In this document: piece after piece, positions 3,131 through 63,896 of the stretch
Numbering within the stretch: position 1 is the stretch's first letter
Layout of the letters: every line of letters starts with the position of its first letter
DNA from: an uncultured Eubacteriales bacterium
Lineage (GTDB): Bacteria; Acidobacteriota; Aminicenantia; Aminicenantales; UBA4085
Direction of reading: 5' to 3'
NCBI GenBank assembly: GCA_964537875.1
Contig: CAZIDN010000006.1
Location: 30,874 to 94,873 of the forward strand
Length of the DNA stretch: 64,000 nucleotides
Program-made: the position numbers and the translations under genes
Notes under the pieces: generated by a model
Databases searched by the model: none
What the model saw: the letters and a program-made list of their open reading frames with translations, nothing else
What the model was told of the DNA's origin: nothing

Positions 3131-3306
3131 GCCCGCCAGGTCTCATGGTATGCAAGATCGCCGAAAATTTCAAGGAATCCGGCTAAAAGACTGATAATAA
3201 TCTTCTTTTTAGCCGTCTATTTTATTGACCCGAGCTTCAATTCATAAGGCGAACCATTTTGGAAGGATGTTACTTGACAATGAGTCAAGTATAATTTAAA
3301 ATAAGC

Positions 3307-3669: not shown

Positions 3670-4111
3670 AACTTTAGAAAACGGAAAATATGATCTCAAA
3701 GCCCTTCCCGCGAAAGAGCAGGGATTCCTAAAAAGAGTGTTCGATTATTATCATCAAAAACCAGATAGGAGTTTATTTTCAAATTATTGGCTTAGGGAAG
3801 GGCAGAAAATATGGGCCGGGACTCCGCGAAAAGAAGTCGTCGATCTTCCTATTTTCAATATTTGTCTCGATCTAGAGATGCGCTTGGGCATCGGACAAGG
3901 CTATATGAGACTGCCGGATTATCGAGATAAGCTCCAAGGAATAATCGATGATAAATTTCAATCGAGATACCAATTTTGTAAAAAAACAGGCATCTCCCAG
4001 GATACGTTATCGAGAATTCTCAATAAGCGCCGGGAGCCGTCTTTGCGCCTTTTAAAAACCATTCTTGATGCGTTAGGCTACGAAATAAGCTTTCAGAAAA
4101 AGCAAACTTAG
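3653..4111 (+). CDS. Hypothetical protein with C-terminal XRE-type helix-turn-helix (152 aa)
   Basis: C-terminal segment FCKKTGISQDTLSRILNKRREPSLRLLKTILDALGY matches the XRE/Cro HTH pattern; N-terminal 100 aa are unassignable. Confidence 0.5.
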   Translation: MQRIYETLENGKYDLKALPAKEQGFLKRVFDYYHQKPDRSLFSNYWLREGQKIWAGTPRKEVVDLPIFNICLDLEMRLGIGQGYMRLPDYRDKLQGIIDDKFQSRYQFCKKTGISQDTLSRILNKRREPSLRLLKTILDALGYEISFQKKQT

Positions 4112-9785: not shown

Positions 9786-9798
9786 GAAGGACGAAGAT

Positions 9799-10998: not shown

Positions 10999-11046
10999 AT
11001 TTGTGTTGAATGTTGAGGGCTTGACCCCAAGGTTTGACCCCAAATT

Positions 11047-12293: not shown

Positions 12294-12297
<4 letters not shown>
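11047..12297 (-). CDS. ABC transporter permease, MacB/FtsX family (no fused ATPase)
   Basis: N-terminal TM + MacB-type periplasmic domain + C-terminal FtsX 4-TM bundle. The start ATG overlaps the upstream gene's TGA as ATGA (12294-12297). The 646-aa six-frame ORF is an artefactual 5' extension. Confidence 0.75.
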
Positions 12298-13529
<1,232 letters not shown>

Positions 13530-15208: not shown

Positions 15209-15949
15209 ATGCAGATCCGGCTCAATAAATTTTTGGCCCAACGGGGGATCGCATCGCGCCGGAAGGCTGATGAGCTGATCGCCCAGGGTCGCGTCTCGGT
15301 CAACGACCGGCTCGTGGAAAACCTAGGGGTGAAGATCGATGAGGTTAAAGACCGGGTCGCCGTGGACGGGAAAAAAGTCCAGACCGGGCGGACGTTCGTC
15401 TATTACATGCTGAACAAGCCGGCGGGCTACTTGGTGACGCTCTCCGATCCTTTCCAGAGACCGACGATCCGGAAATTGATCCCGAAACTCGAAAAGGGCG
15501 TTTTTCCGGTGGGCAGGCTGGATCAGGACAGCGAAGGGCTGCTCCTTTTGACCAACGATGGAGAGCTGGCCTTCCGCCTGACCCACCCCCGATACGAAGT
15601 CAAGAAAAAGTACCTGGTCCGGGTCGCCGGAGAAGTCGAGTCCTCGGAGATTTCCAGGCTCGCCAAGGGCATTTTTTTGGAAGGCCGAAAAACGGCGCCG
15701 GCCAAGATCGTCGCCCAGGAGCAGACCCCTCACAAAAGCGCCCTCCTGGTCGAAGTCCATGAGGGAAGAAAGCGCGAAGTCCGGAAGATGTTCGAAGCGG
15801 TCGGCCAACGTGTGACGACGCTAAAAAGGGTCGCTTTTGCCGGCCTCCGGCTTGAACACCTGCCGTCCGGCCAATGGAGGTTGTTGGAACATGCCGAGGT
15901 CCAGCATCTGAAGCGCCTTGTCGGACTCGGCGATCGTCATCATCCATGA
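15209..15949 (+). CDS. Pseudouridine synthase, RsuA/RluB family (S4 domain + catalytic domain)
   Basis: N-terminal S4 RNA-binding motif (RLNKFLAQRGIASRRKADELI) and the RsuA-family catalytic block (GRLDQDSEGLLLLTNDG). Confidence 0.8.
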   Translation: MQIRLNKFLAQRGIASRRKADELIAQGRVSVNDRLVENLGVKIDEVKDRVAVDGKKVQTGRTFVYYMLNKPAGYLVTLSDPFQRPTIRKLIPKLEKGVFPVGRLDQDSEGLLLLTNDGELAFRLTHPRYEVKKKYLVRVAGEVESSEISRLAKGIFLEGRKTAPAKIVAQEQTPHKSALLVEVHEGRKREVRKMFEAVGQRVTTLKRVAFAGLRLEHLPSGQWRLLEHAEVQHLKRLVGLGDRHHP

Positions 15950-18336
15950 AACAGACGGGTTTGAAGCTTGCCAAGAAAGACTTGACTGTCTTCTTGCTCT
16001 TGGCGATCCTTTCTTTGGCCATGACCTATCCTCTTCTTTTTCACATGGGCGATCACGTCCCTTCCGACCTCAGGGACCCTCTCTACACGATTTGGGTTCT
16101 GGCCTGGGATGTCCGGGCCGCAGGCTCCGGATTTTCCCAATTTGCCGACGCCAACATCTTTTATCCGCACCGTGACACCCTCTATTATGCCGACAGCCTT
16201 CCTGCCCTGGCCGTCTTAGGGTCTCCGTTCATGGCCCTCGGCCTCAGTCCGGTTCTCGCCTACAATATCCTTTTCCTCCTGTCATTTTTTTTCTGCGGAT
16301 TGGGCATGTACTTGCTGGTGAGACACCTGACGCTGTCGCGAACCGCGGCTTTCATGGCCGGGCTGATCTTTGCCTTTTTCCCTTACCGTTTCGCCCATAT
16401 CAGCCATCTGGAGCTGCTCTATTTCGCCTGGATGCCGCTCTGCTTTTTGTTCATCCACCGCTTTTTTGAGGAGCCTACGGTTCGAAATACGCTGGGCATA
16501 GCCTTCTTTTACCTGCTCCAAGTTACGAGCTGCAGTTATTACGGCGAATACCTTACGCTTTTCGCCGGACTTCTGGTCCTCTATCTTGCCCTGAAGCATG
16601 GATATTGGCGCAAGGGTTTTTTTTGGTCGCGAATGGCCCTGCTGGCGGTCCTATGCTTGGCCGTGCTTTTTCCCTATTTTTATCCTTACTTCAAGCTTCA
16701 CGCCAGGATGCTGTTCTCCCGACCGGTTTGGGAGGTCAAGTTCTATTCTGCGGAGCTCCAGCATTTTCTGGCCGTGCCGGCCTGGAATGTGGCTTGGGGA
16801 TGGCTGACGGGAAAGCTCGGCGCTCAAGAATGGCAGCTCTGTCCGGGCGTTTTTCCCGTTTTGTTGACGCTGGCGTGGTGGCTGGGAATAAAAAAAGCTT
16901 GGCGAGAGACGCCGCCCAAGACCGGCGCAAAAAGAAGATGGTTTTTTGGCTGGGACGTGGTGAACATCCTGCTGTTCATTTTTGTCGCGGTCATCGGCGT
17001 CACGGGCGGATTCGAAGGGAGGCTCGCCGGGATCGGCCTCTCCGTTCATCAGCTGAAGAATCCTGTTCTGATCCTTTTGATTTCGCTGATTTTGAGGATC
17101 CTTCTCGGCAAAAATCTCAGGTCCGGTTGGCTGCGTTTCTTCCGCGCCGCCAGCCCGCCCCAGAAATATTACTTGCTCGTCGCCGTTCTTGCCTGGCTGC
17201 TTTCTCTCGGGCCTGTCGTCAGGCTTCTCGGCCGGGAAATCATCGACGGGCTGTATGGCCTGTTTTACAGCTGGATGCCCGGTTTTCAAAACCTGCGCGT
17301 CCCCAGCCGCTTTGCCGTTCTCATGATGCTGGGCCTGGCCGTTTTGAGCGGTTGGGGCGTTCTGTTTTTAATGGAAAAATGGAAGCGGTCCCGATTGCGA
17401 ACGATCGGGCCGGGAATTCTGGCCCTGCTCGTCTTGGCCGACTATGCGTCCGTGCCCATGCCTCTGGCCAAAGTGAATGTCGGAAGCCAAATCCCAAAAA
17501 TCTATGCGGCCGTCCGGAAGCTGCCCAAGGAGGCATCGCTCGTCGAGCTGCCCATGCCGGCCCATGACTGGGAAGAGTTCGAGGATGCTGCGGCCGTTTA
17601 TTATTCGATTTACCATTGGAGGAATATCGTCAACGGCTACAGCGGGTATGCCCCGCCGGGATACCGCGTCATCCGGGAGGCCATGGACGAGTTCCCCTCG
17701 GAGCCCACATTCGAGCTTTTGAACAACCTGGAAGTTGGATATCTCCTGGTCCATACCCAGGGATTCCGTCCTGAAAAGGGGAGGGACATTGTCCGTCGGC
17801 TCCGGAATTTTATGAGCCGCGTGGAGCTCGTCGTCCAGACCGATGGGGATTTTTTGATCAGGCTGCTTCCGGCCGCGCCTGAGGCCTATGAAGATGAACG
17901 GATGGTGGACGCCGGCGATAAGACGAAATGGAAAGCCGACGCCAGTTTGAACAATCATCGAGCCGGGCTGGCCTTTGACGGCGATTTGGGGACGGGCTGG
18001 TCGACCGGCTATCCCCAGCGCCAGGGCGATTATTTCCGGCTGGACCTTGGCTCACCGGTTCACATGCGGCGAGTGGAGCTCGTTCTGAACAACAATCCCT
18101 TGGATTTTCCCAGGAGCTTTATCGTTGAAGGATCTTTGGACGGAAGGCAATGGACGAAACTCAACGAAAACCCCTCGTTTTTTCCGCCGCTGAACCTTCG
18201 GATGATCGAGGACTTTTCTCAATACAAAGTCGATGTTCGTTTTGAACCGTGTCAGGTCCGTTTCCTGCGGCTCACGCTGACACGCTCGCATGAAGCCCGC
18301 CATTGGTCGATCAACGAGATTGTCTGCAAGAATTAA
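15946..18336 (+). CDS. Polytopic membrane protein (GT-C/PMT-like N-terminal region) with C-terminal F5/8 type C (discoidin) domain
   Basis: ATG at 15946 overlaps the rluB stop as ATGA. About 12 TM helices in the first ~530 aa; C-terminal ~150 aa GDLGTGWSTGYPQRQGDYFRLDLG...VRFLRLTL is discoidin-like. Confidence 0.5.
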   Translation: MKQTGLKLAKKDLTVFLLLAILSLAMTYPLLFHMGDHVPSDLRDPLYTIWVLAWDVRAAGSGFSQFADANIFYPHRDTLYYADSLPALAVLGSPFMALGLSPVLAYNILFLLSFFFCGLGMYLLVRHLTLSRTAAFMAGLIFAFFPYRFAHISHLELLYFAWMPLCFLFIHRFFEEPTVRNTLGIAFFYLLQVTSCSYYGEYLTLFAGLLVLYLALKHGYWRKGFFWSRMALLAVLCLAVLFPYFYPYFKLHARMLFSRPVWEVKFYSAELQHFLAVPAWNVAWGWLTGKLGAQEWQLCPGVFPVLLTLAWWLGIKKAWRETPPKTGAKRRWFFGWDVVNILLFIFVAVIGVTGGFEGRLAGIGLSVHQLKNPVLILLISLILRILLGKNLRSGWLRFFRAASPPQKYYLLVAVLAWLLSLGPVVRLLGREIIDGLYGLFYSWMPGFQNLRVPSRFAVLMMLGLAVLSGWGVLFLMEKWKRSRLRTIGPGILALLVLADYASVPMPLAKVNVGSQIPKIYAAVRKLPKEASLVELPMPAHDWEEFEDAAAVYYSIYHWRNIVNGYSGYAPPGYRVIREAMDEFPSEPTFELLNNLEVGYLLVHTQGFRPEKGRDIVRRLRNFMSRVELVVQTDGDFLIRLLPAAPEAYEDERMVDAGDKTKWKADASLNNHRAGLAFDGDLGTGWSTGYPQRQGDYFRLDLGSPVHMRRVELVLNNNPLDFPRSFIVEGSLDGRQWTKLNENPSFFPPLNLRMIEDFSQYKVDVRFEPCQVRFLRLTLTRSHEARHWSINEIVCKN

Positions 18337-40700: not shown

Positions 40701-43700
40701 CTAATCTTTGCTAGTCTTTTTAACGGTTCCCGGCCTGCCCCTGACAAACTGGATGCGGACCCGATCCTGGACCTCTTCTTCGAAGCGGACGGTTTCGTAC
40801 TTTGCTTGGGACAGGTACTTAAGGTGGGCGCGGAGATAGCTCAATCCCTGCATGGATAGGAAATCGAGCCAGGCACCCCGGGCCGTTTCGTCCATGGCTT
40901 CCACCGTCTCGTCGACGAACGTGACTTGGGTCCTGGCCGAGAGACGGCTTTCGGTCGAAGAGCGCCTCTTGGCGTAAAGGTTGACGCCGTCGTAGAGCTC
41001 GAGATAGTCGAGATGGGGCTGCCAGCGGGCGGCCCAGCGGATGTAGCGATCGGCGAATCTTTTATTGGACTCCTTGAGCTTTTCGTTCGACTGCATTTCG
41101 GCGATGATGAAACTCTTCAATTCGTCGCCGGCGTCTTTGTATTTTTGGTAGAGGGGAAGGCTGAGGGCTCTGTAAAAGACATACCAGCCCCTGGGGATCC
41201 AGTAATCGCGGAAGAGATACGGCGAGTAATTGGAAAACTGCTGGACCCACTCGTGGGAGGGATATCCGTGGAGGTTGAGGTAGATGTCCGGCTGCCATTT
41301 GCTGTTCAGGCTCCTCCTCACCAGGGCTTCCGGAAGGATCGGCCGCGCGCTGCCGCCCATGGAGCCGACATCGATTCCTAGAGAGCTGTAGCGGCCGGCG
41401 TGGAGGCTGTGGAACGGCGTCAATTTCTGAAGGTCATAGGCCATGGCGGCGCCGTCGGGATTTTCCATCGGATGAAACACGAAGTTAATCTTGTTGATAT
41501 AATCCTGGTAGGTCTTGTCCGTCGCCAGGAGCTCGGCCAGCTTGAGAATATAGCTCGTCGAGGACACCTCGTTGGCGTGCTGACGCCCGCTGAGATAGAT
41601 CGTCGGCTTGGCTGCGATCAGGCGCGGCAGCGAGACATACTTGCCGAGCGGCTTGTAGACTTCGATCACGGGAACATCCCGGCCTTCATAGGATTTTCCC
41701 CCGATATATGTCCTTACGGCCGCGAATTGGGCCAAACGGTCGACGGTTTCCTGGACCATTTCCGGGGATAAGATTTTTGTCGTATCGACGATAGCTTCGC
41801 CCGGTTTAAGAGGCCTGGGGGCCGGCTTTTCCGCGGATTCGGCGGCCGTGATGGGAAGGATTTCCTCTTTTTCCATCTCCTTGCATTTCATCTTGAGCGT
41901 AAGGCTGTTGAGATTCGGAAAGCTCAAGGCCGTCGGCAGCAGGCCTTTATCCTGTAGATCTCTGTAAGAAGCCAGGATATCCAGCAGGGCCAGGTACTCG
42001 GCGTCCTTCTCGAACTCGAGCTCTATGACCAGACTCTCGATTTTTTCTTCAAGCCCGTTGTAGATGAGCGCCGGAACCTGGAGCGGTTTCGGCTTGAGCG
42101 AAGGGAAGGCGATCTTACGGCTGAATTCTTCACGGCCCTTTTCTTTCCATTTGATGATCATCTGGGGCGAAGAGGCCGTCCAGTCCTCGAATGATACTTT
42201 GACCTTGGGCCGTTCTCCTTCCGTGGAAGGGTGGATCAAGGGAAAGATATTGCCGGGCGCGGAAACGCGCGACGTGTCTTCAGGCAGCTCCTGGTCCTCG
42301 ATGTCGAGCTCCGTGATGCCCCTGAGAAAATCAAGCGTGTCGAAATAGAGCTCGTCATGGATGGCCTCCAGCGAGCTGATGATCTCTTCATCCAGCCCGA
42401 TCCGGAAATCCGGCTCGCTGGACCACAGCTCGACGAGCAGCCGCTTGAAATATGGTTGTTTGGAGTAGGTCGGCTCGCTGTTTGTTTTTTTGAGGATGTG
42501 GGAATAGACGGGAGCGAGAACTTCATCCTGGTAATATTCCCAGATTTTTTCGAGGTCGGATTTGAGCGAAACATCGGAGAGGACCTCTTTTCCCGCCTCG
42601 ATCTTCAGCCAGCCAGTGGTCAACTTCACCTTTCCCCATTCGGGGACGGGCTTGAGGTAGGAGATTTCGCGGATGCGCGGCGAAAAGCTCTGCTGGAGCA
42701 AGAGTGCGTTTTTCGCGTCATGGGCCGAAACTTCGTAAGTGGCGCCGCCCGGAGGCTTGAGCTCAAAATGGATCTTGTCCAGGGGGATGTTGAGGTCTCT
42801 GGCCATGATCTCGTCCACGGGATAGAGCTCCTGCAGCCAGCGCGCCGGCTCGGCATAGAACCTCTTAGGCTGACTCAGGTTTTCCTTCTCCTCGGCGAAT
42901 TTGATGACGATCTGGCCGACGGGCTTGCCTCTGAGCTGCGGCAGAATTCTTTCCTGCAGCCAGAAAAAGCCCTGCTTGTAGGCAGAGAGGACTTCGACTT
43001 CGGCCCGCGTTTTTTGGCTTTCCGGAAATAGGGCTTCGACCTGTTTTTTGACTTTCTGCCGGATGTCCGGGGATTCGCTGAGCCCCAGGCTGATCTTGAG
43101 TGGCCCGGCCGGGCTTTCCAGGGCTTTCAATTTTTCCTCGATGAGCTTCAGGGCGTCCTCGGCTTCCCAGGAAAAAGTCTGCTCTTTTTCAAAGATTTTC
43201 TTGCCGTCATTCAAGAGAAAGCTCTTGACCTCGAGCGATTCAGTTTTGACGGCGGCCGCCAGGCTCTTCTTCACATCCTCCTCGAATTTCGGGTTCGGTC
43301 GCGGCAGATAGATCTCGGCCTTGAACGATTCCATGTCTTTGTCCTTGAAATCTTCCAGGACCTTTTTCAAGCCCTGGGCGAGAAAAGCTTCCGCGCTGCC
43401 GTGCTCGCCTTTGAAAAACTTTTCCAGGGCCGCCGCGGCATCGCCGATCTGCGGGCGGCCGTCCTTGTATTCGTCGAGATAGGGAAAAGTCTGGTTGAAA
43501 TAGGCCAGGATTTTTTCCATCCCGATATTGTCTGCTGCCAGGAAGGCCAGGGCGCTGGACTTGTTGAAAGCTTTGGGAATCACCTTGGCCATCCCCCAGG
43601 CGTTCTCCAGGGATGGCGCCTTCAATTTTCCGATCCTCTGCAGCTCCTGGGTGAGAATATTGGAGCCGATCAGGATGGGTGCGACCAAGGCTTTTTTGTG

Positions 43701-44840
43701 CTCGATCTCTTTATCGAGATAGACGACGGGAAAAGAGGCTCCGGCCGTTCCGAGCATGAGCCTCGAAGAGATTTGGGCGATTCCTTTGATGTTCGAGCCC
43801 TGGGGAATGATCACCTGAGAGTCCAGGGAGTCGATCGTTCCGTCTCGATCGATATCGCCATAGACGCCCTTGGTCGTCAAAAGGCTGAGAAGGTCGAATT
43901 CTTTGCCGGCCCCGTCCGCTCTCGGCGTGTCTTTGAAGGACGGTGTCAGCATCCGTCTTGGAGCGCCCATGCGGGGGATGACAACCTGCATGTTCTTTTT
44001 CCCGTAGCGGAGCGAGAAGGTCAATTGGGCGCAGCCCGGGTAGGAAAGAAAATCTGTCCTCTGGCCTTTTTCGTGCTGCCGGCCAAGCGCATCGAAGGCC
44101 TTGAAAGTTTTTTGCTGGTCCTCCTCGTCCGTGAAATAGATCTCCACAGTCAGGTCCCTGATCTCGCCCGAGTGGAAGGAGAGTTTTTTGAGCGGGGCCG
44201 GGCTTTTTTTGGGAGGCGGAAATTCATAGAGGGCGGATTTGATGATGGTTTTTTGGAGACTCACGCCCTCGGCGGTCAGGAACTGGGTGATGTCTTTTTC
44301 GAGCGAGAGGAATGTCGCCCCTTCTTCTCGTCCCCAGATTTCCCAGAAGTACGGCCAGCGGAGGAAAAAGGCGCGGCCGGTCTGAAGCAAGGCGTCCTCG
44401 CTGCTGGCGACGAGAAGGATGCCGTTCTGGTCCTTGAGGGAAAAGGCGGCGACGAGTCCCTGGTTCGGCCCGAGCGAGGGCACGAGGATGTCCTCATCCT
44501 TGATGGCTTCCCTGAGCCATTTCACGTTCGTCCCGATGAAAATGGGATTTTCCAGGCGTTCGATGCGGGAAATATCGGACTCCCTTCTGACGAGGGCAAA
44601 ATCCTGGACCAGGCTTTCCAGGTTGGCCCGGGCGGCAATGTCGGAGGCCACGGCCAGCTCGGCGGCGTTGGCATTGTCGGGGATGACGATGCAAAGCGTG
44701 ATCTTATCGACCAGCAAATCGCCGTCGAGGTCCTTGAGGGCCTTGCCGAGCAGGAACATCTGGGAAAGGCTGGCTACCTGGGCCGGGAGCGCATGGACAA
44801 ACAGCAGCATGATGCAGAGCGCCACAAAGGTTTTTTTCAT
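40701..44840 (-). CDS. Very large secreted protein (1379 aa) with M14 zinc-carboxypeptidase-like domain
   Basis: Signal peptide MKKTFVALCIMLLFVHALPAQ. C-terminal quarter carries M14 motifs HANE (HxxE), NPDG and NLHGYPSHEW; the N-terminal ~1000 aa are unassignable. Confidence 0.6.
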   Translation of the reverse strand: MKKTFVALCIMLLFVHALPAQVASLSQMFLLGKALKDLDGDLLVDKITLCIVIPDNANAAELAVASDIAARANLESLVQDFALVRRESDISRIERLENPIFIGTNVKWLREAIKDEDILVPSLGPNQGLVAAFSLKDQNGILLVASSEDALLQTGRAFFLRWPYFWEIWGREEGATFLSLEKDITQFLTAEGVSLQKTIIKSALYEFPPPKKSPAPLKKLSFHSGEIRDLTVEIYFTDEEDQQKTFKAFDALGRQHEKGQRTDFLSYPGCAQLTFSLRYGKKNMQVVIPRMGAPRRMLTPSFKDTPRADGAGKEFDLLSLLTTKGVYGDIDRDGTIDSLDSQVIIPQGSNIKGIAQISSRLMLGTAGASFPVVYLDKEIEHKKALVAPILIGSNILTQELQRIGKLKAPSLENAWGMAKVIPKAFNKSSALAFLAADNIGMEKILAYFNQTFPYLDEYKDGRPQIGDAAAALEKFFKGEHGSAEAFLAQGLKKVLEDFKDKDMESFKAEIYLPRPNPKFEEDVKKSLAAAVKTESLEVKSFLLNDGKKIFEKEQTFSWEAEDALKLIEEKLKALESPAGPLKISLGLSESPDIRQKVKKQVEALFPESQKTRAEVEVLSAYKQGFFWLQERILPQLRGKPVGQIVIKFAEEKENLSQPKRFYAEPARWLQELYPVDEIMARDLNIPLDKIHFELKPPGGATYEVSAHDAKNALLLQQSFSPRIREISYLKPVPEWGKVKLTTGWLKIEAGKEVLSDVSLKSDLEKIWEYYQDEVLAPVYSHILKKTNSEPTYSKQPYFKRLLVELWSSEPDFRIGLDEEIISSLEAIHDELYFDTLDFLRGITELDIEDQELPEDTSRVSAPGNIFPLIHPSTEGERPKVKVSFEDWTASSPQMIIKWKEKGREEFSRKIAFPSLKPKPLQVPALIYNGLEEKIESLVIELEFEKDAEYLALLDILASYRDLQDKGLLPTALSFPNLNSLTLKMKCKEMEKEEILPITAAESAEKPAPRPLKPGEAIVDTTKILSPEMVQETVDRLAQFAAVRTYIGGKSYEGRDVPVIEVYKPLGKYVSLPRLIAAKPTIYLSGRQHANEVSSTSYILKLAELLATDKTYQDYINKINFVFHPMENPDGAAMAYDLQKLTPFHSLHAGRYSSLGIDVGSMGGSARPILPEALVRRSLNSKWQPDIYLNLHGYPSHEWVQQFSNYSPYLFRDYWIPRGWYVFYRALSLPLYQKYKDAGDELKSFIIAEMQSNEKLKESNKRFADRYIRWAARWQPHLDYLELYDGVNLYAKRRSSTESRLSARTQVTFVDETVEAMDETARGAWLDFLSMQGLSYLRAHLKYLSQAKYETVRFEEEVQDRVRIQFVRGRPGTVKKTSKD

Positions 44841-55192: not shown

Positions 55193-55294
55193 GGAGTATC
55201 CTTTAGGATTGGATTTTAAAGGGATAAAATTATACCGTATTCTCTCGAAAAATCAAAACGGCCGCGCTCGAGAGGATGCCAATCCCTTTGAGCA

Positions 55295-55323
55295 TTGACA
55301 TTTCTCCATAACTGCAATAAATA
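55295..55323 (+). promoter_or_regulatory. Sigma-70-like promoter at the island's 5' edge
   Basis: TTGACA - 17 nt - TAAATA upstream of the ATG at 55354. Confidence 0.3.
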
Positions 55324-55353
55324 ATAAGCATAATGTATAAGGAAGGAAGGGGC

Positions 55354-56700
55354 ATGTCCAAAAGACAGCTGTCTATATCAATCCTGGCGATTTCCTTAGG
55401 GATGTTTTTTCTGGAAATCCCTTGGTTAATTTCCCAGGAAACTTCTGCCAACAAAGCCGCCAAGCTCAAGATCGGTGAGATGAAATTTGAGACAGATCTC
55501 GCCGGCCGGAAAGCGCCCGCAGGAAAACTTTTTTTGGTGCTTGAAACGGAGTGGGAAAATATCCACCCCAAGCAGAAAATCGAAAAGAGCAGGCTGGAGG
55601 GCAAGCAAGACCGGACGATGGGGGTGGGCGGGCTCACCGGGGGAGGGCAAAAAGGAAAAGAGGAGTATGTAGATGCGGATGTCGCCTATCAAGTCCCGAA
55701 TTTTTTTGACCATGCTTACTGCCTGGCCGACGGAAAAAGCTACCCATTGGACAGGCTGACTGAGCAAACTCAGGGCGGCATAGGATTGAAAAAAACATTC
55801 TCCATAGCAAAATTCGGAGAAAAGAAACAGGTCACTTTCGTCTACGTTGTTCCCAAGGACGCTAAAAATCTGGCATTTCAGTTCTTCGATTATTCCAACG
55901 GCCATCTCCTGGTCCCGATCAAAGGCGACTTAGCATTGGCTCGCGGAGCAGGGGGAGGCGCCGGAAAGGTCTTGGATCAGTTTAAGGATGATTTTATCGA
56001 TATTTCGGCTAACAAAATGGATTTCCAAGCCGAGTTTAAAGGCGAAAAAGCGCCCGCAGGTTGGCAATACACCGTCGTCGAGCTCGGGGGGAAGAGCCTT
56101 TCTGAGGGAAATATCATTCAGATTAGGCCAAAAGATTATCTCTGGCTGAGCACGAACGATGGTTATCTCTACTATTGCGGCGGCGCGACGACAACAGAGG
56201 GAGGGCTTATCCGTTTTACCCCTGAGGTATACCAAAATCAAGAAGTCGCCTTTCTCGTGCCAGCGGCCGTGAAGGACTTTACCCTCGGAGTGCGGATTAA
56301 GAACAAGGTCTATAATCTCAAGCTTAATCCAAGATTTCAGCCGGAAATCCCCAAGGCCCTGGCCTCGCATCGCGATGGGAAGACGATGGAGATTTTTGTT
56401 TACGGCCTGCGTCAGGAGGGCGACAAAACCATCCTCGACCTCGGCATCCAGTCGCTCGTGAACAGCGGGATCGAGATCCAGACCAGCCGGCAATTTATCC
56501 TCAAGACCGGCGAGGAGAGCGTCAATTTTGATGAGGAGTCCACAGGGGCGCTCTTTCATCGTCCGCCCGACCCCTTCACGATCCCGCCGCAGACATTCAT
56601 CCGGTTTGAGCTGGCTTATAAAAGCGGCAAGGTGCCAACCGCACTCTACTACCGCGGTTACGAAAGCGAAAAGACGTTTGAGCTTAGTAAAATCAGGTAA
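55354..56700 (+). CDS. Secreted hypothetical protein with two DUF4352-like beta-sandwich repeats
   Basis: Signal peptide; internal duplication (AGRKAPAGKLFLVLETEWEN... / KGEKAPAGWQYTVVELGG...) resembling the DUF4352 pattern; 448 aa. Confidence 0.45.
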   Translation: MSKRQLSISILAISLGMFFLEIPWLISQETSANKAAKLKIGEMKFETDLAGRKAPAGKLFLVLETEWENIHPKQKIEKSRLEGKQDRTMGVGGLTGGGQKGKEEYVDADVAYQVPNFFDHAYCLADGKSYPLDRLTEQTQGGIGLKKTFSIAKFGEKKQVTFVYVVPKDAKNLAFQFFDYSNGHLLVPIKGDLALARGAGGGAGKVLDQFKDDFIDISANKMDFQAEFKGEKAPAGWQYTVVELGGKSLSEGNIIQIRPKDYLWLSTNDGYLYYCGGATTTEGGLIRFTPEVYQNQEVAFLVPAAVKDFTLGVRIKNKVYNLKLNPRFQPEIPKALASHRDGKTMEIFVYGLRQEGDKTILDLGIQSLVNSGIEIQTSRQFILKTGEESVNFDEESTGALFHRPPDPFTIPPQTFIRFELAYKSGKVPTALYYRGYESEKTFELSKIR

Positions 56701-56750
56701 TCATAGATATTTATTCATGACTTAATATGCGATTCAAAAAGGAGGGTCGG

Positions 56751-59294
56751 ATGGCTGACTTTAACCGTCATTTAAAGAAAAGCAAGATCTTGGTTTTTTT
56801 CACCATTTTCGCATTTCTCTATATGTCGTGTTTCACCTCCTGTTCCAAATCCGGCAAAAAGGAAAAGGAGGAAGTGGCGAGGGGAGCCGATGATGCCGCA
56901 AAAGCCGCAGCGACAGCGGGAGAGGGACAAGCGATTGCAGAGCTGCAATCAGCTGAAGAATCTGGAAAAGAAAGGCCTGTCTCCCAAGAGGATTTAAAAA
57001 GGGCGACTGAAAAACTAGAAGCCTATTTTCAAGCGCTTGAGGAAGCTGCGAAGGCAATGCCCAGAGATACGTTCGATCCCCAAGCTATTTTAGAAAAGAT
57101 TGGCAAAGATTATACAGCTCTTTTTCTATGGGTCCAGAGAAATACATCTTTTATTCCCTATCAAGGAGTGCTTCGGGGTCCAGTGGGAGTCCTGATGGAG
57201 AGGCGAGGGAACAGTCTGGATCGCGCTCTATTGCTGTACGAGATACTGCGACTTGCCGGCTATGAGGTCAAGTTAGCGCGCGGAAAATTATCTGAAGACC
57301 AAGCGAAAAATATCCTTGCCAAACGACGTGAGCTGATTGAGGAAGAAATTCTTCCCCAAACCAAAATGAGCGCGAATGAAATGGGCGAGATAATTCAGCC
57401 CTATGTAGATAAATATCAGCTTGATAAAAATAGGATTCTCCAGGCCGTTAATAAGAACCGGGTTGGCAAGGACGATCTCTTCGAAAAAGTCAGAACTCGC
57501 GTTTCTGACCAAACTCGGCGAATAACTCAATTTCTCGAAGATTCCGACATTAAATCCGGGACGGGCAAGGACCGTGGCCGATATTCCTTAATTCAAGATC
57601 ATTGGTGGGTTCAGATGAAACAGGATGAAGGTTGGCTTGACCTGGACGTCAGCGTCGATCAACCAACTCCAGGGAAAAAGCTGGTCGCCGCTGACGAAAC
57701 GGTCGCTTTCCAGGATCTGCCGGAGGATCTTTATCATCGCATAATAATCCGGCTTATGGTTGAGCAGTCGACGGAGAGCGGACTCCAAGAAAGCGTTGTT
57801 TTAGAAATCCCGCTGAAAGCTGTAGATTTAATCGGCAAACAGATAATCCTTCGACACATTCCGATGAATTGGCCCCAGGAAGGCAGCCTTTTTAATGAAG
57901 ATGACCCGATTGGCAAGATCAAGAATCTTGCTGCCAACGAAAAAGAATGGCTTCCGGTCTTTGTTATTGGTTCTGAAGAGATCGCCCAAAGCAGCTTTCT
58001 GGATACGGGAGAGGTCAATAAAAATCCAGGAAGAAAGAGACGAGCCGCCGGCCCGGGTGGATTGGTCGGCGGCATGTTTAATGCCCTTGCAGGAGGGGAG
58101 GGCGAAAAGAAGCCTGAGAAGTTATCGTGCCTTACGGCAGAATGGATTGAGTACGAGATAGTATCCCCTGACTTTCCGGCCAACAGAATTCGTCGTCAGG
58201 TATTCGATCTTATTGGCCCTAACGCGCGCTTGGGGCATCGAAGGGCTGATCCAGAAGCTATTGAATCAAGGAGGTTAGAGAGAGCCTTGGCTTTGCTCGG
58301 AGAGACCGAAATCGCCGCTATTGTCGGTCGTTTGTCGCCTGATTTTCTTGCTCGGATGTTAGCCGACAAACTCATTGTCAATAAAGAGATACTGATTAGT
58401 TTACTTTGTTCTAAGAATCTCTATTCCCCGTCTCAAATCAACGAAGCGATTGAAAAGATTGTCCCTTTCCCCGGATTAGAGTACAGCCTCGCCATGGTCA
58501 GGGATATGGGGAGTCGTCATCGATCCGCTATTTTCCTCAGCCAGCCAAATATATTGGCGTTTCACAAATATCCACGGCTCGATCCCAACGGCGAAATCAG
58601 TTTTTGTCAGGCGCTTGATATAGTCAACAACGAAATTTCCCTTGTTCCGGAAACAAAGAATCCTCTCTTAGTCGCTCTGGAACAGGGAGTCTTGGATACA
58701 AATTGGGAGGCATTTTTATTGGATCCCTGCGGAAAAGCTGAAAACACGGCGCAGATTTTCGCCGAACTAGATTCCAGGAAGGTTGAATGGCGCCTGCTCA
58801 GAGACATAAATGACCCTGGATTGAAAAACTTGGGATTATCGCCCGACGCGCTTGCGCTAATAGGACAAGAATTGTCTGAAGGCTATATTGTTTTTGTTCC
58901 TAAGATAAGCAGGGCAGCTGGTGGTTATCCTCCGGTCGGCTGGTGGAGAATGAACCCTTTAACGGGCAACATTTTGGGCATAGGAGAGCGCGGGTGGGGC
59001 CAAGGAACCACTGAGTATGTCAAAATTATCAGAGCTGTCCTTAAGTTTATAATGCCCGCGTTAGTGTGCGGGATCATCAAAGGACATCAAGCAGGAAAAC
59101 CAGGAGCCACGACCGGCCAACAGGTAGAGGCCGTTGTCATAATAATATCATGCATCGCAGGAGGCGGCTTGTCTATGGTCGGAATGGTCCTTCCGAATCT
59201 TGCTGTCGGCCAAGTCCTGCAGCTCATCGGAGATATTATCAGCTATTCTTTATCCGGTTATAGCGTCATAAGTTATTTTGTTGGTGAACACTAA
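56751..59294 (+). CDS. Lipoprotein with divergent transglutaminase-like domain (Cys replaced by Ser) and C-terminal hydrophobic anchor
   Basis: AAGGAGGG RBS then the ATG at 56751. Lipobox-like ...FLYMSC/FTSC. TGase-like core GNSLDRALLLYEILRLAGYEVKLARG (canonical G-x-C-x-D-F-A...) and downstream DHWWVQMKQDEGWLDLD (canonical H-x-W-x-E-x-y...GW-x-x-D). C-terminal 70 aa are strongly hydrophobic. Confidence 0.55.
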   Translation: MADFNRHLKKSKILVFFTIFAFLYMSCFTSCSKSGKKEKEEVARGADDAAKAAATAGEGQAIAELQSAEESGKERPVSQEDLKRATEKLEAYFQALEEAAKAMPRDTFDPQAILEKIGKDYTALFLWVQRNTSFIPYQGVLRGPVGVLMERRGNSLDRALLLYEILRLAGYEVKLARGKLSEDQAKNILAKRRELIEEEILPQTKMSANEMGEIIQPYVDKYQLDKNRILQAVNKNRVGKDDLFEKVRTRVSDQTRRITQFLEDSDIKSGTGKDRGRYSLIQDHWWVQMKQDEGWLDLDVSVDQPTPGKKLVAADETVAFQDLPEDLYHRIIIRLMVEQSTESGLQESVVLEIPLKAVDLIGKQIILRHIPMNWPQEGSLFNEDDPIGKIKNLAANEKEWLPVFVIGSEEIAQSSFLDTGEVNKNPGRKRRAAGPGGLVGGMFNALAGGEGEKKPEKLSCLTAEWIEYEIVSPDFPANRIRRQVFDLIGPNARLGHRRADPEAIESRRLERALALLGETEIAAIVGRLSPDFLARMLADKLIVNKEILISLLCSKNLYSPSQINEAIEKIVPFPGLEYSLAMVRDMGSRHRSAIFLSQPNILAFHKYPRLDPNGEISFCQALDIVNNEISLVPETKNPLLVALEQGVLDTNWEAFLLDPCGKAENTAQIFAELDSRKVEWRLLRDINDPGLKNLGLSPDALALIGQELSEGYIVFVPKISRAAGGYPPVGWWRMNPLTGNILGIGERGWGQGTTEYVKIIRAVLKFIMPALVCGIIKGHQAGKPGATTGQQVEAVVIIISCIAGGGLSMVGMVLPNLAVGQVLQLIGDIISYSLSGYSVISYFVGEH

Positions 59295-59452
59295 GATGAA
59301 GAGAAGGCAAGAAAGAACGGCAACGCGGAAGACCACCAACATAAGAGCTGGCTGTAACCTTTGAAAATATCTGTTTTCTTCTTTTTTATTTAATTAAGAG
59401 GGTACCGGGCAAAAAGTTAATATAAACACACGGAAAAGAGAAGGAGGCGGAA

Positions 59453-62400
59453 ATGCAAGAATACCTATCCATCAGACGCTTTATTCCAGGGTTATTGCCG
59501 ATTTTTTTATTCGTGCTTCTATTTATCCCATCCTCCGCCCAGGTCAAATCCGAAACCGAGCCGAATGACGCAATGGAGCAGGCCAATGAATTCCGGGTCG
59601 GCGAGAGCATCGAAGGCTATTTACAAGATCGTGACTATGATTGGTATAAGCTCATTGTGAATAAGCCGGGCAAGAACTATATCAGGATCGATCTCTCAGG
59701 AGTCCCCGGCATAAATGCGGAACTCCGACTTTGCGATGAGAAGGGCAATAGGATATGGGAAGTGAATGACGCCGAAGCCGGCGGTGCCGAACAGATTGTC
59801 CATTTCCCAGTCAATCCAGGAATTTATTACATCCGGATCTATGGGGGCGGCAAAGCCACAAAGGAAAAATATATTTTAAGCTCACGGATCATGGATCCCT
59901 GGCAAGAGGGCGAGGAATCCGAGCCGAACGACCGTCAAGAATCGGCCAATGAGCTGAAGTTGGGACAAGTTGTCGGAGGATTCTTTGCCAAACGATACGA
60001 TGAGGACTGGTTTAAGCTGATCGTTGACAAGCCCGGCAAAAGCCTTGTCCTAATCGATATCACGGCTGTCCCGGGAGTCAATAGTTCGCTCACCTTGCGC
60101 GACGCAAACGGTCGAAGCATTTGGGATGTCAATGAAGCAGAAGCGGGTGGTCCGGAATCCATCTTCAATCTTGCCTTGGCTCAAGGCATGTATTTTATCC
60201 AACTTTATGCTCGGGAATTCAACTATAACAACCATTATGTGCTTCATACGCGCATCCTCGGCCCATGGCAGGAAGGCCTGGAGGCTGAACCGAATAATCG
60301 AATGGAGGATGCCACGGAGCTCAGGCTCGGCCAGAGTGTGGAAGGCTATGTTCAATATAATAGCGATGACGATTATTACAAGCTGATTATCGACAAACCC
60401 GGCAAGAACGATATCCAGGTTGACCTTAGCGCGGTTCCGGGAGTGGATATGAGGTTTGGAATTACTGATAAAGACAGCAAAGAGCTTTGGCGCGCTAACG
60501 ATGGCTCAAAAGGCGAGCCGGAATCCGTCTCGCATTTAACCCTCGGAGAAGGCACCTATTATATCTGGGTGGAAGGCTATCAGAAGAATATCACTGACAA
60601 GTATGTCTTAAGCACGCGCTTACTTGGAGCCTGGCAAGAAGGCACTGAGGCCGAACCCAACGGTGATATTAAGCGGGCTAATGAAATCAAGCTGAACACG
60701 CCGCTGACCGGCCGGATCAATGAAAATAGCGACTATGACTATTATGTTCTGAACGTCCCTGAGCCTGGGATTGAGACGATTGACATGCAGATCTCCGGCG
60801 TTCCTGACGTGAGATGGAATTTTGAGCTGTTCGACCAAAAAGAAAACCGGTTGGATGAATCAAGGTGGCATGAGGCCGGACAGGGCGAAGAGATCGTCAA
60901 GATGAAATTCAAGCCTGGCACCTATTATCTAAGCGTGCGAGTCTATAACGGAAAAAATCCGGGTAGCGTATACACCCTTTATGCCGGGAAACCCCAAAAG
61001 CCGCCAGCGACGCCGGAGGAAGTCCGGCAAGCGCTGGTCAAGGCCCTCGATTATCTAGCTTCAGGACAGCAAAAAGACGGCTCATGGCTTCCAAATTCTT
61101 ATGCGCAAGCATTCACGGGTCTTTCTCTCATGGCTTTTATCGGCGGCAAATGTGCCCAGAAAGATTATTCAGCCAATATCAAGGGAGCGATCAACTACTT
61201 AAAATCACAGTATAAGCCCAGCTCAAAGTATCCCGAAGGCTCTGAAAATGCGGCGTATTATGGAGGAACGCTCGGGACAGAAAATATGTATCAACATGCG
61301 ATCGCCACCCTGGCTGTGATCGAAGCCCTTGCCGATTTAGATGATCCGAGCCTCGAACCCATCGCCCAAGACGCGCTCAGCTTAATCATCCGCGCTCAGA
61401 ATACGGAACACAAGCCCGAGACGCTCGGAGGGCCTATCAAGCCCGACTCCCGCGCCTACGGCGGCTGGCGGTACAATCCGAACAGCACTGGCAGCGACAT
61501 CTCGGTCACGGGCTGGCAGGTTCTCGCCCTTAAGGGCGCCGTCAATGCAGGATTTTCTATTCCCGAATATGTCTTTCCCTCGGCAGCTCGGTTCGTCAGG
61601 TCTCTTCAAGGCAAAGAGGACGGCTCGTTCAGGTACGAATCTCCCGGAGACACAGGCAATTCCTGCGCTCGGGCCGGAATGGGAGCTCTCTCCTTACAAC
61701 TCAGCGGTTTTCCTCAAGATCCTGCGATTCCTCCCGCTTTGCGATTTATGCAGGATTACGCGCCGCGTTGGAATATCGAAACGCGGGGAGACGGCTATCC
61801 ATTCTATTATTGGTACTATGGCACGCGGGCGATGTATCTTGCGGGCGGCGACGACTGGCGCATCTGGAAAGACTGGATATGTCGCTTCCTCGTTGACCAT
61901 CAGAACAAGGACGGAAGCTGGGATGGCGTAAACAACGAAGATAGACTTGACACTTATAGAGTTGCGCTTGGCGCTTTAATGCTCGAATTCTGCTGTGGGC
62001 ATGTGCCGATCTATATGTCGCCGGTGAAGCGGCTGGGGCCGGCGTCTATCAGGGTGAATTTTGAGAAAGGCGCTGAGAAGGAAATCGCTAAGAATGTCGA
62101 GATCATCATGGACGCCTCAAATTCCATGACCGGGCTGATCGGAAAGGAGACAAAGATGACCGTGGCCCGGCGGGTCCTGACCCAGATCATCAACGGATTG
62201 CCGGAGACGATGAATGTAGGCTTCCGGGTCTACGGCCATCGCTATCCGACGGACGCCTACCAGCAGGCCTGTCAAGATACGGAGCTTCTGCTGCCCATCG
62301 GGCCGGTCCAGAAGGCCAAGCTCGTGGAGCTGGTGAACAAGATCCAAACAAAAGGCCGGACGCCGCTTGTCCTCTCTGTGCTTCAAGCGATTAAAGACTT

Positions 62401-62854
62401 TGAAAAGCTGCCGAACGGGAGCGTCGTTTTGGTGACGGACGGGATCGAGAGCTGCAACGGAGACATCAAATCGATCGCTCCGGCGATCAAAAAGTCGGGC
62501 CTTGATCTCAAAGTTCATATTGTGGGATTCGACATCAAGGAGAAGGAATCCCGGGAGCAGCTGGAAGCGATCGCCAAATCCACGGAAGGGATGTATCTGG
62601 ATGCCAAGGATGCCAAAGGGCTGCTATCAGCCCTCGAGCAGGCGTTGAAGATCGAGTATATGGTCCTTGACGAGAAAGGCGAGGTCAAGGCTAAGGGTTT
62701 CGTGGGCGGGGAAGCGGTCAAGATTCCGGAAGGCACCTATACGCTTCGGGTCATGCTGGCGCCGCAGCCTTTAGAGACAAAAGTAAACTTAGCCTCGGGC
62801 GAAAGGCCAATTTTTATCCTGAAAAAAGAGGCCGGGAAGTGGGCCCTGAAATAG
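59453..62854 (+). CDS. Secreted multidomain protein: 4 x PPC (pre-peptidase C-terminal) domains + QW-repeat alpha/alpha toroid (prenyltransferase/squalene-cyclase-like) + vWA + C-terminal beta domain
   Basis: Signal peptide; four ~115-aa repeats each starting E(A/S)EPN(D/N/G)...A(N/T)E and containing D(Y/W)(D/Y)(W/Y)YKL..(N/D)KPGK (nt 59555-60988). QxxDGSW repeats (QQKDGSW, GGWRYNPNSTGSDISVTGWQVLAL, HQNKDGSW; nt 61010-62017). vWA with MIDAS DASNS...T...D (nt 62090-62647). Confidence 0.6.
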   Translation: MQEYLSIRRFIPGLLPIFLFVLLFIPSSAQVKSETEPNDAMEQANEFRVGESIEGYLQDRDYDWYKLIVNKPGKNYIRIDLSGVPGINAELRLCDEKGNRIWEVNDAEAGGAEQIVHFPVNPGIYYIRIYGGGKATKEKYILSSRIMDPWQEGEESEPNDRQESANELKLGQVVGGFFAKRYDEDWFKLIVDKPGKSLVLIDITAVPGVNSSLTLRDANGRSIWDVNEAEAGGPESIFNLALAQGMYFIQLYAREFNYNNHYVLHTRILGPWQEGLEAEPNNRMEDATELRLGQSVEGYVQYNSDDDYYKLIIDKPGKNDIQVDLSAVPGVDMRFGITDKDSKELWRANDGSKGEPESVSHLTLGEGTYYIWVEGYQKNITDKYVLSTRLLGAWQEGTEAEPNGDIKRANEIKLNTPLTGRINENSDYDYYVLNVPEPGIETIDMQISGVPDVRWNFELFDQKENRLDESRWHEAGQGEEIVKMKFKPGTYYLSVRVYNGKNPGSVYTLYAGKPQKPPATPEEVRQALVKALDYLASGQQKDGSWLPNSYAQAFTGLSLMAFIGGKCAQKDYSANIKGAINYLKSQYKPSSKYPEGSENAAYYGGTLGTENMYQHAIATLAVIEALADLDDPSLEPIAQDALSLIIRAQNTEHKPETLGGPIKPDSRAYGGWRYNPNSTGSDISVTGWQVLALKGAVNAGFSIPEYVFPSAARFVRSLQGKEDGSFRYESPGDTGNSCARAGMGALSLQLSGFPQDPAIPPALRFMQDYAPRWNIETRGDGYPFYYWYYGTRAMYLAGGDDWRIWKDWICRFLVDHQNKDGSWDGVNNEDRLDTYRVALGALMLEFCCGHVPIYMSPVKRLGPASIRVNFEKGAEKEIAKNVEIIMDASNSMTGLIGKETKMTVARRVLTQIINGLPETMNVGFRVYGHRYPTDAYQQACQDTELLLPIGPVQKAKLVELVNKIQTKGRTPLVLSVLQAIKDFEKLPNGSVVLVTDGIESCNGDIKSIAPAIKKSGLDLKVHIVGFDIKEKESREQLEAIAKSTEGMYLDAKDAKGLLSALEQALKIEYMVLDEKGEVKAKGFVGGEAVKIPEGTYTLRVMLAPQPLETKVNLASGERPIFILKKEAGKWALK

Positions 62855-62909
62855 AAAACTTAAAACTATTCATCTATTGAATTAAGCTGTTTTTAAAAGC
62901 AAATTGAAT

Positions 62910-63896
62910 TTATTGCGGCTTCACGGCCGAGGCAAGCCAGTGGGGCATCGGCGGCGGAAGGGGACGCCGCTCAAAACTTTGAAATCCGGCTTCGGCCAGC
63001 CAGGCTTCAAGCTCGTCCTCTGAAAATACCCAGCCGTGCGGTGTCGTCAACGCCATGTTCAAGGCGAAGAGCGCCGAGAACTTCGGCTGAGTGTGGGTCG
63101 AATCGGTCATCATGTCAAGAACGTAGAGTGTGCCGCCTGCGACCATGGCCGCATGGGCTCGCCGGAGAAGGTCGCGAATGTCGGCTGGTTCTTCTTGGTG
63201 TAAAACGCCGAAAAAGATGACGACGTCGTTTTCGCCCGGAAACCTTACTTTATGATAATCACCGGCTAGGGTTTGGACGCAACTTTGCATCCCGGATTGT
63301 GCAATCAACTCATCAGCGATCCGAACGATTTCAGGAAGGTCGAGCACAGTGCATTTGACCGTGGGGAAAGCTTTGGCAATTAACATCGAATAAGTCCCGG
63401 GCCCGCCGCCAACGTCGAGAAGCCTGCGCCGGCCATTTAAGTCGAGTTGGGGGATGACTGCCTGACCTATGGCTAAAGCCCGGCCGTGCATGGCCAGGAC
63501 GAACGTGCGCGTGCGTTCCGGATCTTCGCCAAGGTGGAGCTCCGGGCGCTCGACCGGCCGGCCGCTCCTCACCATCTCGGCGAGCTTACCCCAAGCGTTA
63601 TAGACATCGCGATTATATCGGATCGCGCCGCTTAGGTCGGCCGGCGAGCCGGGGACGAGGAAAGCGGCCGCTTCAGGCGTGTTGCGGTAGATGTTCCCGG
63701 CTTTGGACAGAAGCCCTACGGCTACGCATGCGTCAAGAAGAAGGCGCGCGCCCCGGAGGTTGAGGCTGCAGGCGGCGGCGACCGTGGGCGCGTCGGCTTC
63801 ACCAAGCTCTGCCAGCGTTCGAAAAATACCCAGGTCGGAAGAAGTAAAAAGCAGGCATGATTCGTAGAAGGCGCTGGCCATGTCCAGGATACGCAT
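62910..63896 (-). CDS. Class I SAM-dependent O-methyltransferase (Methyltransf_2 with N-terminal dimerisation/winged-helix domain)
   Basis: SAM motif I LLDVGGGPGTY; plant-type OMT / CrtF-like architecture; 328 aa. Confidence 0.75.
   Translation of the reverse strand: MRILDMASAFYESCLLFTSSDLGIFRTLAELGEADAPTVAAACSLNLRGARLLLDACVAVGLLSKAGNIYRNTPEAAAFLVPGSPADLSGAIRYNRDVYNAWGKLAEMVRSGRPVERPELHLGEDPERTRTFVLAMHGRALAIGQAVIPQLDLNGRRRLLDVGGGPGTYSMLIAKAFPTVKCTVLDLPEIVRIADELIAQSGMQSCVQTLAGDYHKVRFPGENDVVIFFGVLHQEEPADIRDLLRRAHAAMVAGGTLYVLDMMTDSTHTQPKFSALFALNMALTTPHGWVFSEDELEAWLAEAGFQSFERRPLPPPMPHWLASAVKPQ

Follow-up and report, generated by a model that had tools for sequence, protein, structure and literature searches.

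The window analysed here, a stretch of 64,000 nucleotides (contig CAZIDN010000006.1 of assembly GCA_964537875.1), carries three neighbouring genes, named A, B and C in what follows, whose products all bear export signals in the form of hydrophobic N-termini. The genes are flanked on one side by acs (acetate-CoA ligase) and kbl (glycine C-acetyltransferase) and on the other side by an O-methyltransferase gene, all of these on the - strand. A-B-C is a self-contained three-gene module endemic to the Aminicenantes, and its products may form one envelope-bound complex for binding or recognition. The features of the locus, with their positions in the window, are the following:

55193-55353, + strand: acs-A intergenic region, containing TTGACA (55295-55300) and, ahead of the ATG at 55354, the Shine-Dalgarno sequence AAGGAAGGAAGGGG
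55271-61700, + strand: hypervariable cassette with low GC content at third codon positions (GC3), comprising A, B and the 5' two-thirds of C, delimited by identity to sister genomes and as a GC and tetranucleotide outlier
55354-56700, + strand: gene A, open reading frame (ORF), with an in-frame alternative ATG at 55333
56727-59294, + strand: gene B, ORF of 855 aa, with a likely start at 56751 (MADFN..., 847 aa)
57078-57656, + strand: transglutaminase-fold core of B (residues ~118-310)
57213-57215, 57600-57602 and 57645-57647, + strand: former triad positions of B, Ser163, His292 and Asp307, respectively
59295-59452, + strand: AT-rich B-C intergenic region, with the strong Shine-Dalgarno sequence GAGAAGGAGG before C
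59453-62854, + strand: gene C, ORF of 1133 aa
59549-60967, + strand: four PPC repeats of C (collagenase collagen-binding-domain-like), each starting with E-x-E-P-N-D/N
60998-62062, + strand: alpha/alpha toroid of C (squalene-hopene-cyclase/prenyltransferase-like, with a QW-type motif)
62090-62602, + strand: von Willebrand factor A (vWA) domain of C with a full metal-ion-dependent adhesion site (MIDAS), D887-x-S889-x-S891, T970 and D996
62603-62851, + strand: C-terminal domain of C, ~85 aa, probably a beta-sandwich, with no Pfam or NCBIfam match

An earlier note on this DNA, made from the letters alone, had described three co-oriented genes with strong ribosome-binding sites, and these were present as described, the Shine-Dalgarno sequences being visible. 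B probably starts at 56751, since its homologues begin at MADFN. The promoter-like sequence that had also been attributed to the locus stood only in part, since the TTGACA hexamer is perfect but the accompanying -10 is poor, and the scan for promoter consensus sites was no better than shuffles (11 sites versus 7.8 +/- 2.4). No excess over shuffles was obtained in the terminator scan, and no Rfam family was found at the locus, where a twister-sister match was at chance level (E 0.24). In agreement with the earlier note, the borders showed no mobility features: no tRNA, no integrase or transposase ORF and no flanking direct repeats.

The distribution of the module was surveyed by scanning one genome per species with a profile of A, which gave 47 loci, and by searching the ORFs of these loci with profiles. 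Nearly all of the loci belonged to metagenome-assembled genomes (MAGs) of Aminicenantes, and three to Proteobacteria. Co-occurrence in other genomes, which had been suggested as a check, was clear: A, B and C were located together in 36 of the 47 loci, another 6 were cut by contig ends and 5 were apparently short of one part. The gene order varied (A-B-C, A-C-B, B-A-C and C-A-B), and C was found in one to three tandem copies. As for further conserved partners, no other gene family was present in more than ~12 loci, the extra candidates being strand-shadow ORFs and a lineage-specific O-methyltransferase. The latter (Methyltransf_2-type, window 62910-63896, - strand) adjoins the module in no fewer than 12 further loci (L007, L003, L054, L055, L014, L015, L016, L017, L019, L022, L023 and L024), with 66-92% identity, and is placed downstream and convergent, upstream and divergent, or upstream on the same strand. 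It may reflect lineage synteny or be a loose fourth partner.

In-frame fusions of A and C were also observed, among them fusions in some Proteobacteria. L050 carried one in an ORF of 2000 aa and L051 one in an ORF of 1805 aa; a single ORF for A and C was present in one MAG of Mariprofundaceae and in one of Thiodiazotropha. Fusions of 1785-1979 aa were contained in no fewer than 10 additional representative clusters. In the fusions, A is N-terminal to C. In two giant A-C fusions, of 2762 aa (P0254) and 3028 aa (P0243), PDZ and PG_binding_1 domains were added at the end. The giant metagenomic proteins P0243, P0254 and P0244 (1015 aa) combine the A module with two vWA, discoidin, SUN, DUF4352, PDZ and PG_binding_1 domains, and the match of PF11611 (DUF4352) in P0243 lies in a region other than its A module.

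"Uncultured Eubacteriales" or "Clostridiales" stands in the titles of many contigs that carry the module; these labels look wrong, and the organisms are probably Aminicenantes. The BamA encoded in the window was 62-72% identical to proteins named Candidatus Aminicenantes, and the acs and kbl proteins shared 95-98% identity with their counterparts in L007 (Aminicenantes chromosome OY970261.1), L056 and L001. Therefore, the module is native to the phylum of its host, which is a diderm encoding BamA and LolCE. A literature search on the domain combination, on DUF4352 and on a Ser-His-Asp transglutaminase fold returned no description of the module, and no PADLOC defence-system model matched A, B or C. 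The statement that no described system has this combination thus held for the literature, Pfam, NCBIfam and PADLOC. A-B-C appears to be an undescribed module assembled from known folds, with a function that is proposed here from sequence.

The composition of the locus was then compared with that of its surroundings. The drop in GC from 62% to 42-50% given in the earlier note was real, but its figures were not: the region 55200-62905 has 49.5% GC, the remainder of the window 56.0% and the whole window 55.2%, a drop of ~6.5 points, and the highest value of any 2-kb block in the window is 58.9%. Nor did the drop fall exactly over the three genes, since GC is host-like (0.54-0.57) from ~61,000 on, within the second half of C. 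The tetranucleotide correlation of the island with the rest was 0.78, against 0.90-0.975 for non-overlapping 7.7-kb windows, among which the island was the sole outlier. GC3 was 0.61, 0.48 and 0.61 in A, B and C, respectively, versus 0.66-0.81 in eleven other genes of the window, and GC1 and GC2 were the same as in those genes. Since the difference is located in GC3, with GC1 and GC2 unchanged, amino-acid composition, the explanation that had been raised, is not its cause. A second, smaller low-GC block (0.499) is found at window positions 2001-4000 and overlaps an ORF for a pfkB-family kinase (2174-3130, - strand).

Comparison with sister genomes suggested the origin of this island. At the same site in L007 and L056, proteins A, B and C shared 65-67%, 37-38% and 81% identity with those of the window (91% in the vWA domain of C), and the O-methyltransferase was 92% identical to that of L007. 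Nucleotide identity to both loci was 92-94% up to 55270 and fell to ~71% in A; B could not be aligned, and C was a mosaic (0.69-0.86) that became flank-like (at least 0.83) from ~61700. The span diverging from L007 and L056 coincides with the low-GC segment. A sharp breakpoint was also found between L003 and L055, which were 96.2% identical over 2,234 nt (O-methyltransferase and A) exactly until the A/B junction, after which the B proteins were 44% identical. All pairs of B in the clade shared 36-44% identity regardless of the identity of A (57-96%). Against L001, which carries the same allele type, the ratio of non-synonymous to synonymous substitution rates (dN/dS) was 0.18-0.27 in A, B and C and 0.05-0.06 in the flanks, and the dS values were discordant: 0.20 in B, 0.33-0.40 in the flanks, 0.51 in A and 0.60 in the 5' part of C. 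In 37 other genomes, of 36-68% GC, the module had the GC of its flanks (mean difference -0.001). Related loci of the same clade were 5-12 GC points below their flanks, and L001 shared the offset of the window. At the left edge of the variable region, L007 (9086-9913, - strand) and L056 (9107-9919, - strand) carry an extra ORF of 270-275 aa in the acs-A interval. This ORF matches no Pfam family, its GC is very low (0.449 in L056), and neither the window nor L001 has it.

The near-identical flanks, the divergent alleles and the breakpoint between A and B therefore show that the island is a recombining hypervariable cassette and not an insertion. This cassette is exchanged between lineages by homologous recombination, giving rise to the low-GC3 island, and its site is fixed in this lineage. 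Exchange of this kind points to contact with phages, predators or neighbouring cells. The novel horizontally acquired module of the earlier note was thus upheld as a conserved, undescribed module and set aside as a foreign insertion: what has been horizontally exchanged is the allele at a shared site, not a module acquired into a naive one.

Protein B is the most divergent member of the module. Its homologues numbered at least 580 and carried generic or wrong labels. From the N-terminus, B consists of a lipoprotein-type start (FTSC|SKS), a disordered linker, the transglutaminase-fold core, more beta and helical domains, and hydrophobic C-terminal helices. The core was below threshold for PF01841 (18.8 bits versus a cut-off of 23, E 2e-3), and a precomputed PF01841 match was found in 6 among the 120 listed homologues. 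In structure, the best match of B was PeiW, a cell-wall endo-isopeptidase, together with LapG, and the core has the papain-like transglutaminase fold. LapG was the one significant match when Foldseek was run against the PDB, a profile of B against PDB sequences returned nothing useful, and residues ~320-760 have no solved relative. The NCBIfam and Pfam matches of B were all sub-threshold, with none to DUF3488 or DUF4129.

The cysteine-to-serine transglutaminase-like lipoprotein of the earlier note was confirmed by this weak Transglut_core match, by Ser at the Cys position and by the FTSC|SKS start. The C-terminal membrane anchor held for the window allele, with its two or three hydrophobic helices, but these are not conserved among alleles; many B alleles carry a lipobox-like Cys. 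In 46 long-type homologues, the nucleophile position was Ser in 45 and never Cys, with His and Asp in all 46, which does not correspond to a Cys-His-Asp triad. Ser163 caps the helix 163-176, His292 and Asp307 stand on adjacent strands, and the conservation peak of the protein comprises residues 151-175. A short-type B, devoid of the helical insert, was found within complete A-B-C loci; it keeps His and Asp, and its nucleophile position is Ser in 5 loci, Pro in 8 (SANPLEKA) and Ala in at least 5 (GNA.EQ). Hence, a nucleophile is not needed across the family. No member of the transglutaminase fold with a Ser nucleophile was found in the literature search. To judge from these sequences, B is probably not a conventional enzyme, and its cleft is read as a conserved docking site; catalysis would be possible in Ser-bearing alleles such as that of the window.

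Several loci depart from the common arrangement of B. In L055, a coiled-coil-like gene of 376 aa (2287-3417, + strand) separates A from B. The B of L007 (11384-14062, + strand) has an N-terminal extension of ~300 aa and looks split into ORFs of 892 and 272 aa. In L016, B occurs twice, at 9634-13401 and 15752-18322, as a short-type protein (Pro) and a long-type one (Ser), with C between them.

Protein A has 448 aa and an N-terminal signal peptide. An AlphaFold model built with 36 homologues (pLDDT 81.6) comprised three beta-sandwich domains, at residues ~30-190, 205-325 and 335-445, with a conserved loop (85-101) that is nevertheless flexible or disordered in the model. The fold resembles the sandwiches of YjhA, YcdA and MPT63 and is of the MPT63/YjhA type. 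The two DUF4352-like repeats previously assigned to A were therefore right as regards fold only: the PF11611 model fails on A, the sandwiches are three, and profile-profile comparison detected no sequence repeats among them. The sequence had no match in Pfam (E up to 0.1), NCBIfam, PADLOC or PDB sequences, the last also with a profile. In comparison with the DUF4352/MPT63-like secreted proteins (YjhA, YcdA, MPT63 and Lmo1068), A thus differs in escaping the Pfam DUF4352 model, in having three sandwiches without a sequence repeat and in coming with B and C.

The family of A is small, with 261 representatives (50% clustering) among 1.84 billion proteins; its homologues numbered at least 392, again with generic or wrong labels. 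One of them, the orthologue P0122 on the L001 contig, is labelled by JGI "CRISPR/Cas system-associated endoribonuclease Cas2", which neither sequence nor fold supports and is an evident mis-annotation. About 90 columns of A are invariant, a very high floor of conservation. An N-K-A-[A/V/T] motif is conserved directly after the signal peptide, and the fused forms show, for example, NRAV, NQAV or NSGA at this place; the di-alanine is not kept in these forms, which makes a LapG-type site in A doubtful.

Protein C was as described in the earlier note, four PPC repeats, a QW-type toroid and a vWA domain, with a PPC match of 68.9 bits and weak squalene-cyclase and vWA matches. A signal peptide (hydrophobic residues 5-32) precedes these domains and a C-terminal beta domain follows them. 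An exact-sequence look-up of C gave no record. The PPC score was obtained with PF04151, whose gathering score is 25.9; the repeats also matched the collagen-binding domains of ColH and ColG in the PDB (1.4e-7 to 3e-3), and the direct repeats of this region have a period of 363-366 nt. A match to TIGR04183 (43.2 bits) raised the possibility of a type IX secretion cargo, which was rejected because the match is internal (residues 201-253 of 1133, within PPC repeat 2) and the C-terminus is the vWA-associated domain.

The toroid matched TIGR01787 at 1.3e-6, all of its family matches being below curated cut-offs. With a profile of 30 orthologues, squalene-hopene cyclase (SHC) was matched at 2.5e-5 over only ~100 residues and the thioester-domain (TED) region of TEP1 at 5e-3; SQHop_cyclase_C was matched by 19 of the 30 members. 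Invariant Cys residues (C52, C295 and the C332-C333 pair of "EFCCGH", in domain numbering) and invariant aromatic clusters (FYYWYY) suggest a genuine pocket for a ligand, along with disulfides or a metal site. In the vWA domain, all five MIDAS residues and the Cys940/Cys1001 pair were conserved to at least 95% in an alignment of 52 sequences. VWA_3 scored 22.9 bits on the C of the window (cut-off 27), and VWA and VWA_2 exceeded their cut-offs in variant orthologues. The C-terminal domain is conserved along with the vWA domain, with Gly and Tyr positions kept in all 52 sequences. In other lineages, the arm of PPC repeats and toroid is swapped for discoidin, SUN or thrombospondin-type (TSP_C) modules, and the C-terminal vWA domain is retained.

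Large exported-looking proteins are also encoded elsewhere in the window. The segment 15874-21393 (+ strand) encodes one of 820 aa that ends in a discoidin (F5/8 type C) domain and, after it, a GH123 glycoside hydrolase of full length. Another, of 1379 aa and with an M14 carboxypeptidase domain, is encoded at 40701-44840 (- strand).

The reading preferred here, to which a probability of about 0.45 is given, is that A, B and C form one envelope-bound binding or recognition complex in which B docks, A adapts and C carries the ligand arm, and which owes its polymorphism to exposure. B would be the cell-bound docking subunit, a lipoprotein-type, membrane-tethered protein with a transglutaminase fold but no Cys nucleophile, and its cleft, the sole strongly conserved part of a hypervariable protein, would grip a conserved segment of A or C; the Ser-bearing alleles, that of the window included, may also cleave the segment gripped. 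A would be a three-sandwich adaptor physically coupled to C, a coupling proposed because of the in-frame fusions, which are the only direct evidence for it. C would act as the ligand-binding arm through its distal Ca-dependent PPC repeats and toroid, and its constant MIDAS-vWA domain would bind an acidic residue of the partner in a metal-dependent way. The ligand may be an external or an envelope macromolecule, and phages, predators and neighbouring cells would keep the cassette polymorphic. A more specific version can be put forward only as a doubtful one: a phylum-wide cell-surface recognition system in which nucleophile-less B alleles, constrained A and MIDAS-vWA arms set strain-specific interactions such as phage or predator evasion, kin recognition or polymer attachment.

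Several observations weigh against the preferred reading. The roles given to the three proteins come from domain logic and from the fusions. The conservation of Ser163 in the long-type B (45/46) could signal genuine catalysis and not docking. No outer-membrane or surface sorting signal was found on A or C, the C-terminal hydrophobic helices of B suggest the inner membrane, and the PG_binding_1 and PDZ domains of the fused relatives point to the periplasm, where external diversifying selection is harder to explain. Furthermore, dN/dS is below 1, and relaxed constraint together with recombination could also yield the variability.

Among the alternatives, B might be an active Ser-His-Asp hydrolase or acyl-transferase that processes A or C in a manner like DvhG and DvhA, cleaving off or attaching the binding arm. 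The geometry of Ser163, His292 and Asp307, a helix cap and two adjacent strands, is correct for such an enzyme, these positions are kept in long-type B (45/46, 46/46 and 46/46) and belong to its most conserved segment, the partner has a vWA domain, and A stands N-terminal to C in the fusions like the retention module of LapA/DvhA (PMC10990149). The idea was nevertheless downgraded to an unlikely one because in the short-type B of otherwise complete loci the nucleophile position is taken by Pro (8 loci) or by Ala (at least 5 loci), His and Asp being kept; moreover, the literature search gave no precedent for a Ser nucleophile in this fold, the N-K-A-A of A loses its di-alanine in the fused forms, and neither a LapD-like regulator nor genes for type I secretion are found in the neighbourhood. 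Rather less credit is given to a periplasmic, peptidoglycan-associated complex for envelope maintenance or tethering, away from the surface. It would agree with a diderm host, with the membrane anchors of B and the purely Sec-type signals of A and C, with giant A-C fusions terminating in PDZ and PG_binding_1, and with a cell-wall endo-isopeptidase as the best structural match of B; yet hypervariable alleles and recombination breakpoints are typical of exposed structures and not of periplasmic housekeeping, and the lectin- or adhesin-type modules of C (PPC, discoidin, SUN and TSP_C) vary by lineage and are tandemly duplicated.

An old or non-canonical acquisition of a foreign three-gene module, at a site previously without it, is very improbable and already contradicted. 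A GC3 and tetranucleotide outlier limited to the locus, for which amino-acid composition is no explanation, and the same offset in L001 speak for it, but the host is an Aminicenantes, the module is phylum-wide with host-matched GC, L007 and L056 hold a different allele of it at the same site, and the borders lack integrase, tRNA and flanking repeats. Little more can be said for A as a fibre- or pilus-like polymer subunit with C as tip adhesin and B as assembly or anchoring factor, by analogy with TapA-SipW-TasA or with type V pili and their vWA protein Mfa5: the 1:1 fusions of A and C in many lineages are more easily reconciled with a fixed complex than with a tipped polymer, the ~90 invariant columns of A are unlike those of typical major pilins, and there is no usher, sortase or signal peptidase gene, all of which makes this a remote prospect. 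Least probable is a trap akin to alpha-2-macroglobulin or thioester proteins, built from beta-sandwiches, a TED-like toroid and a vWA domain. The domain vocabulary does resemble C3 plus factor B, and the toroid profile has a weak match in TEP1 of mosquito, in the TED region (E 5e-3), but its match to SHC is stronger (2.5e-5) and no macroglobulin-domain matches were obtained; a thioester mechanism was rejected since C has no CxEQ motif, and no C..Q or C.EQ occurs anywhere in it.

Aminicenantes are abundant in sediments and in the subsurface, are uncultured, and almost nothing is known of their envelope or of their dealings with phages, particles and neighbours. A-B-C offers a handle on this envelope, with families A and B absent from curated libraries. 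A fixed site, low GC3, divergent alleles and sharp breakpoints mark, in cultured bacteria, the main targets of phage or immune pressure, and the locus bears this population signature, with allele classes ~40% identical. The evolutionary behaviour of the module is thus of more interest than a simple acquisition. If a surface recognition system were indeed encoded, the locus would have a role comparable to that of O-antigen or polymorphic adhesin loci in cultured bacteria. B is a natural transglutaminase/papain-like fold that keeps His, Asp and cleft with Ser, Ala or Pro as the nucleophile residue, which bears on the origin of pseudoenzymes or of Ser-using variants, and its alleles could serve as strain-typing markers in metagenomes.

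The nearest analogue is the Lap/Dvh system, in which the substrate of a transglutaminase-like protease (membrane-anchored in the case of DvhG) is an adhesin with a vWA domain, cut at a di-alanine (PMC10990149). The module shares with it an extracytoplasmic transglutaminase-fold protein paired with a large vWA protein bearing repeats that bind Ca (PMC10990149), LapG ranks with the best matches of B in structure, and the beta-rich A is N-terminal to the vWA arm in fused relatives, as the Lap retention module is. Nevertheless, the module departs from this system in its defining features. B has 850 aa, compared with ~200-250 aa for LapG-type proteins, and Ser, Ala or Pro replaces the catalytic Cys; no LapD/DvhD c-di-GMP receptor or type I secretion genes accompany the module in the 47 loci; and A and C use N-terminal Sec signals, with no RTX or C-terminal secretion signal.

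The TgpA-MoxR-DUF58 and Bat (BatA-E) operons are small and conserved, and encode membrane-anchored transglutaminase-like or vWA proteins with extracytoplasmic domains and a poorly known function. A-B-C resembles them in having membrane-anchored proteins of these kinds in a small conserved operon, but differs in that no MoxR AAA+ ATPase, DUF58, TPR or BatD-type gene is found in or near it. Hypervariable surface loci, such as O-antigen and capsule clusters or pilin and adhesin cassettes, are characterized by a fixed site, low GC, divergent alleles and sharp breakpoints. Unlike in O-antigen-type loci, the variable genes of the module encode three exported proteins, which may be exposed, and not sugar-biosynthesis enzymes; like them, the module lies at a fixed site, has a low GC and shows deeply divergent alleles in close relatives, with sharp breakpoints at its borders.

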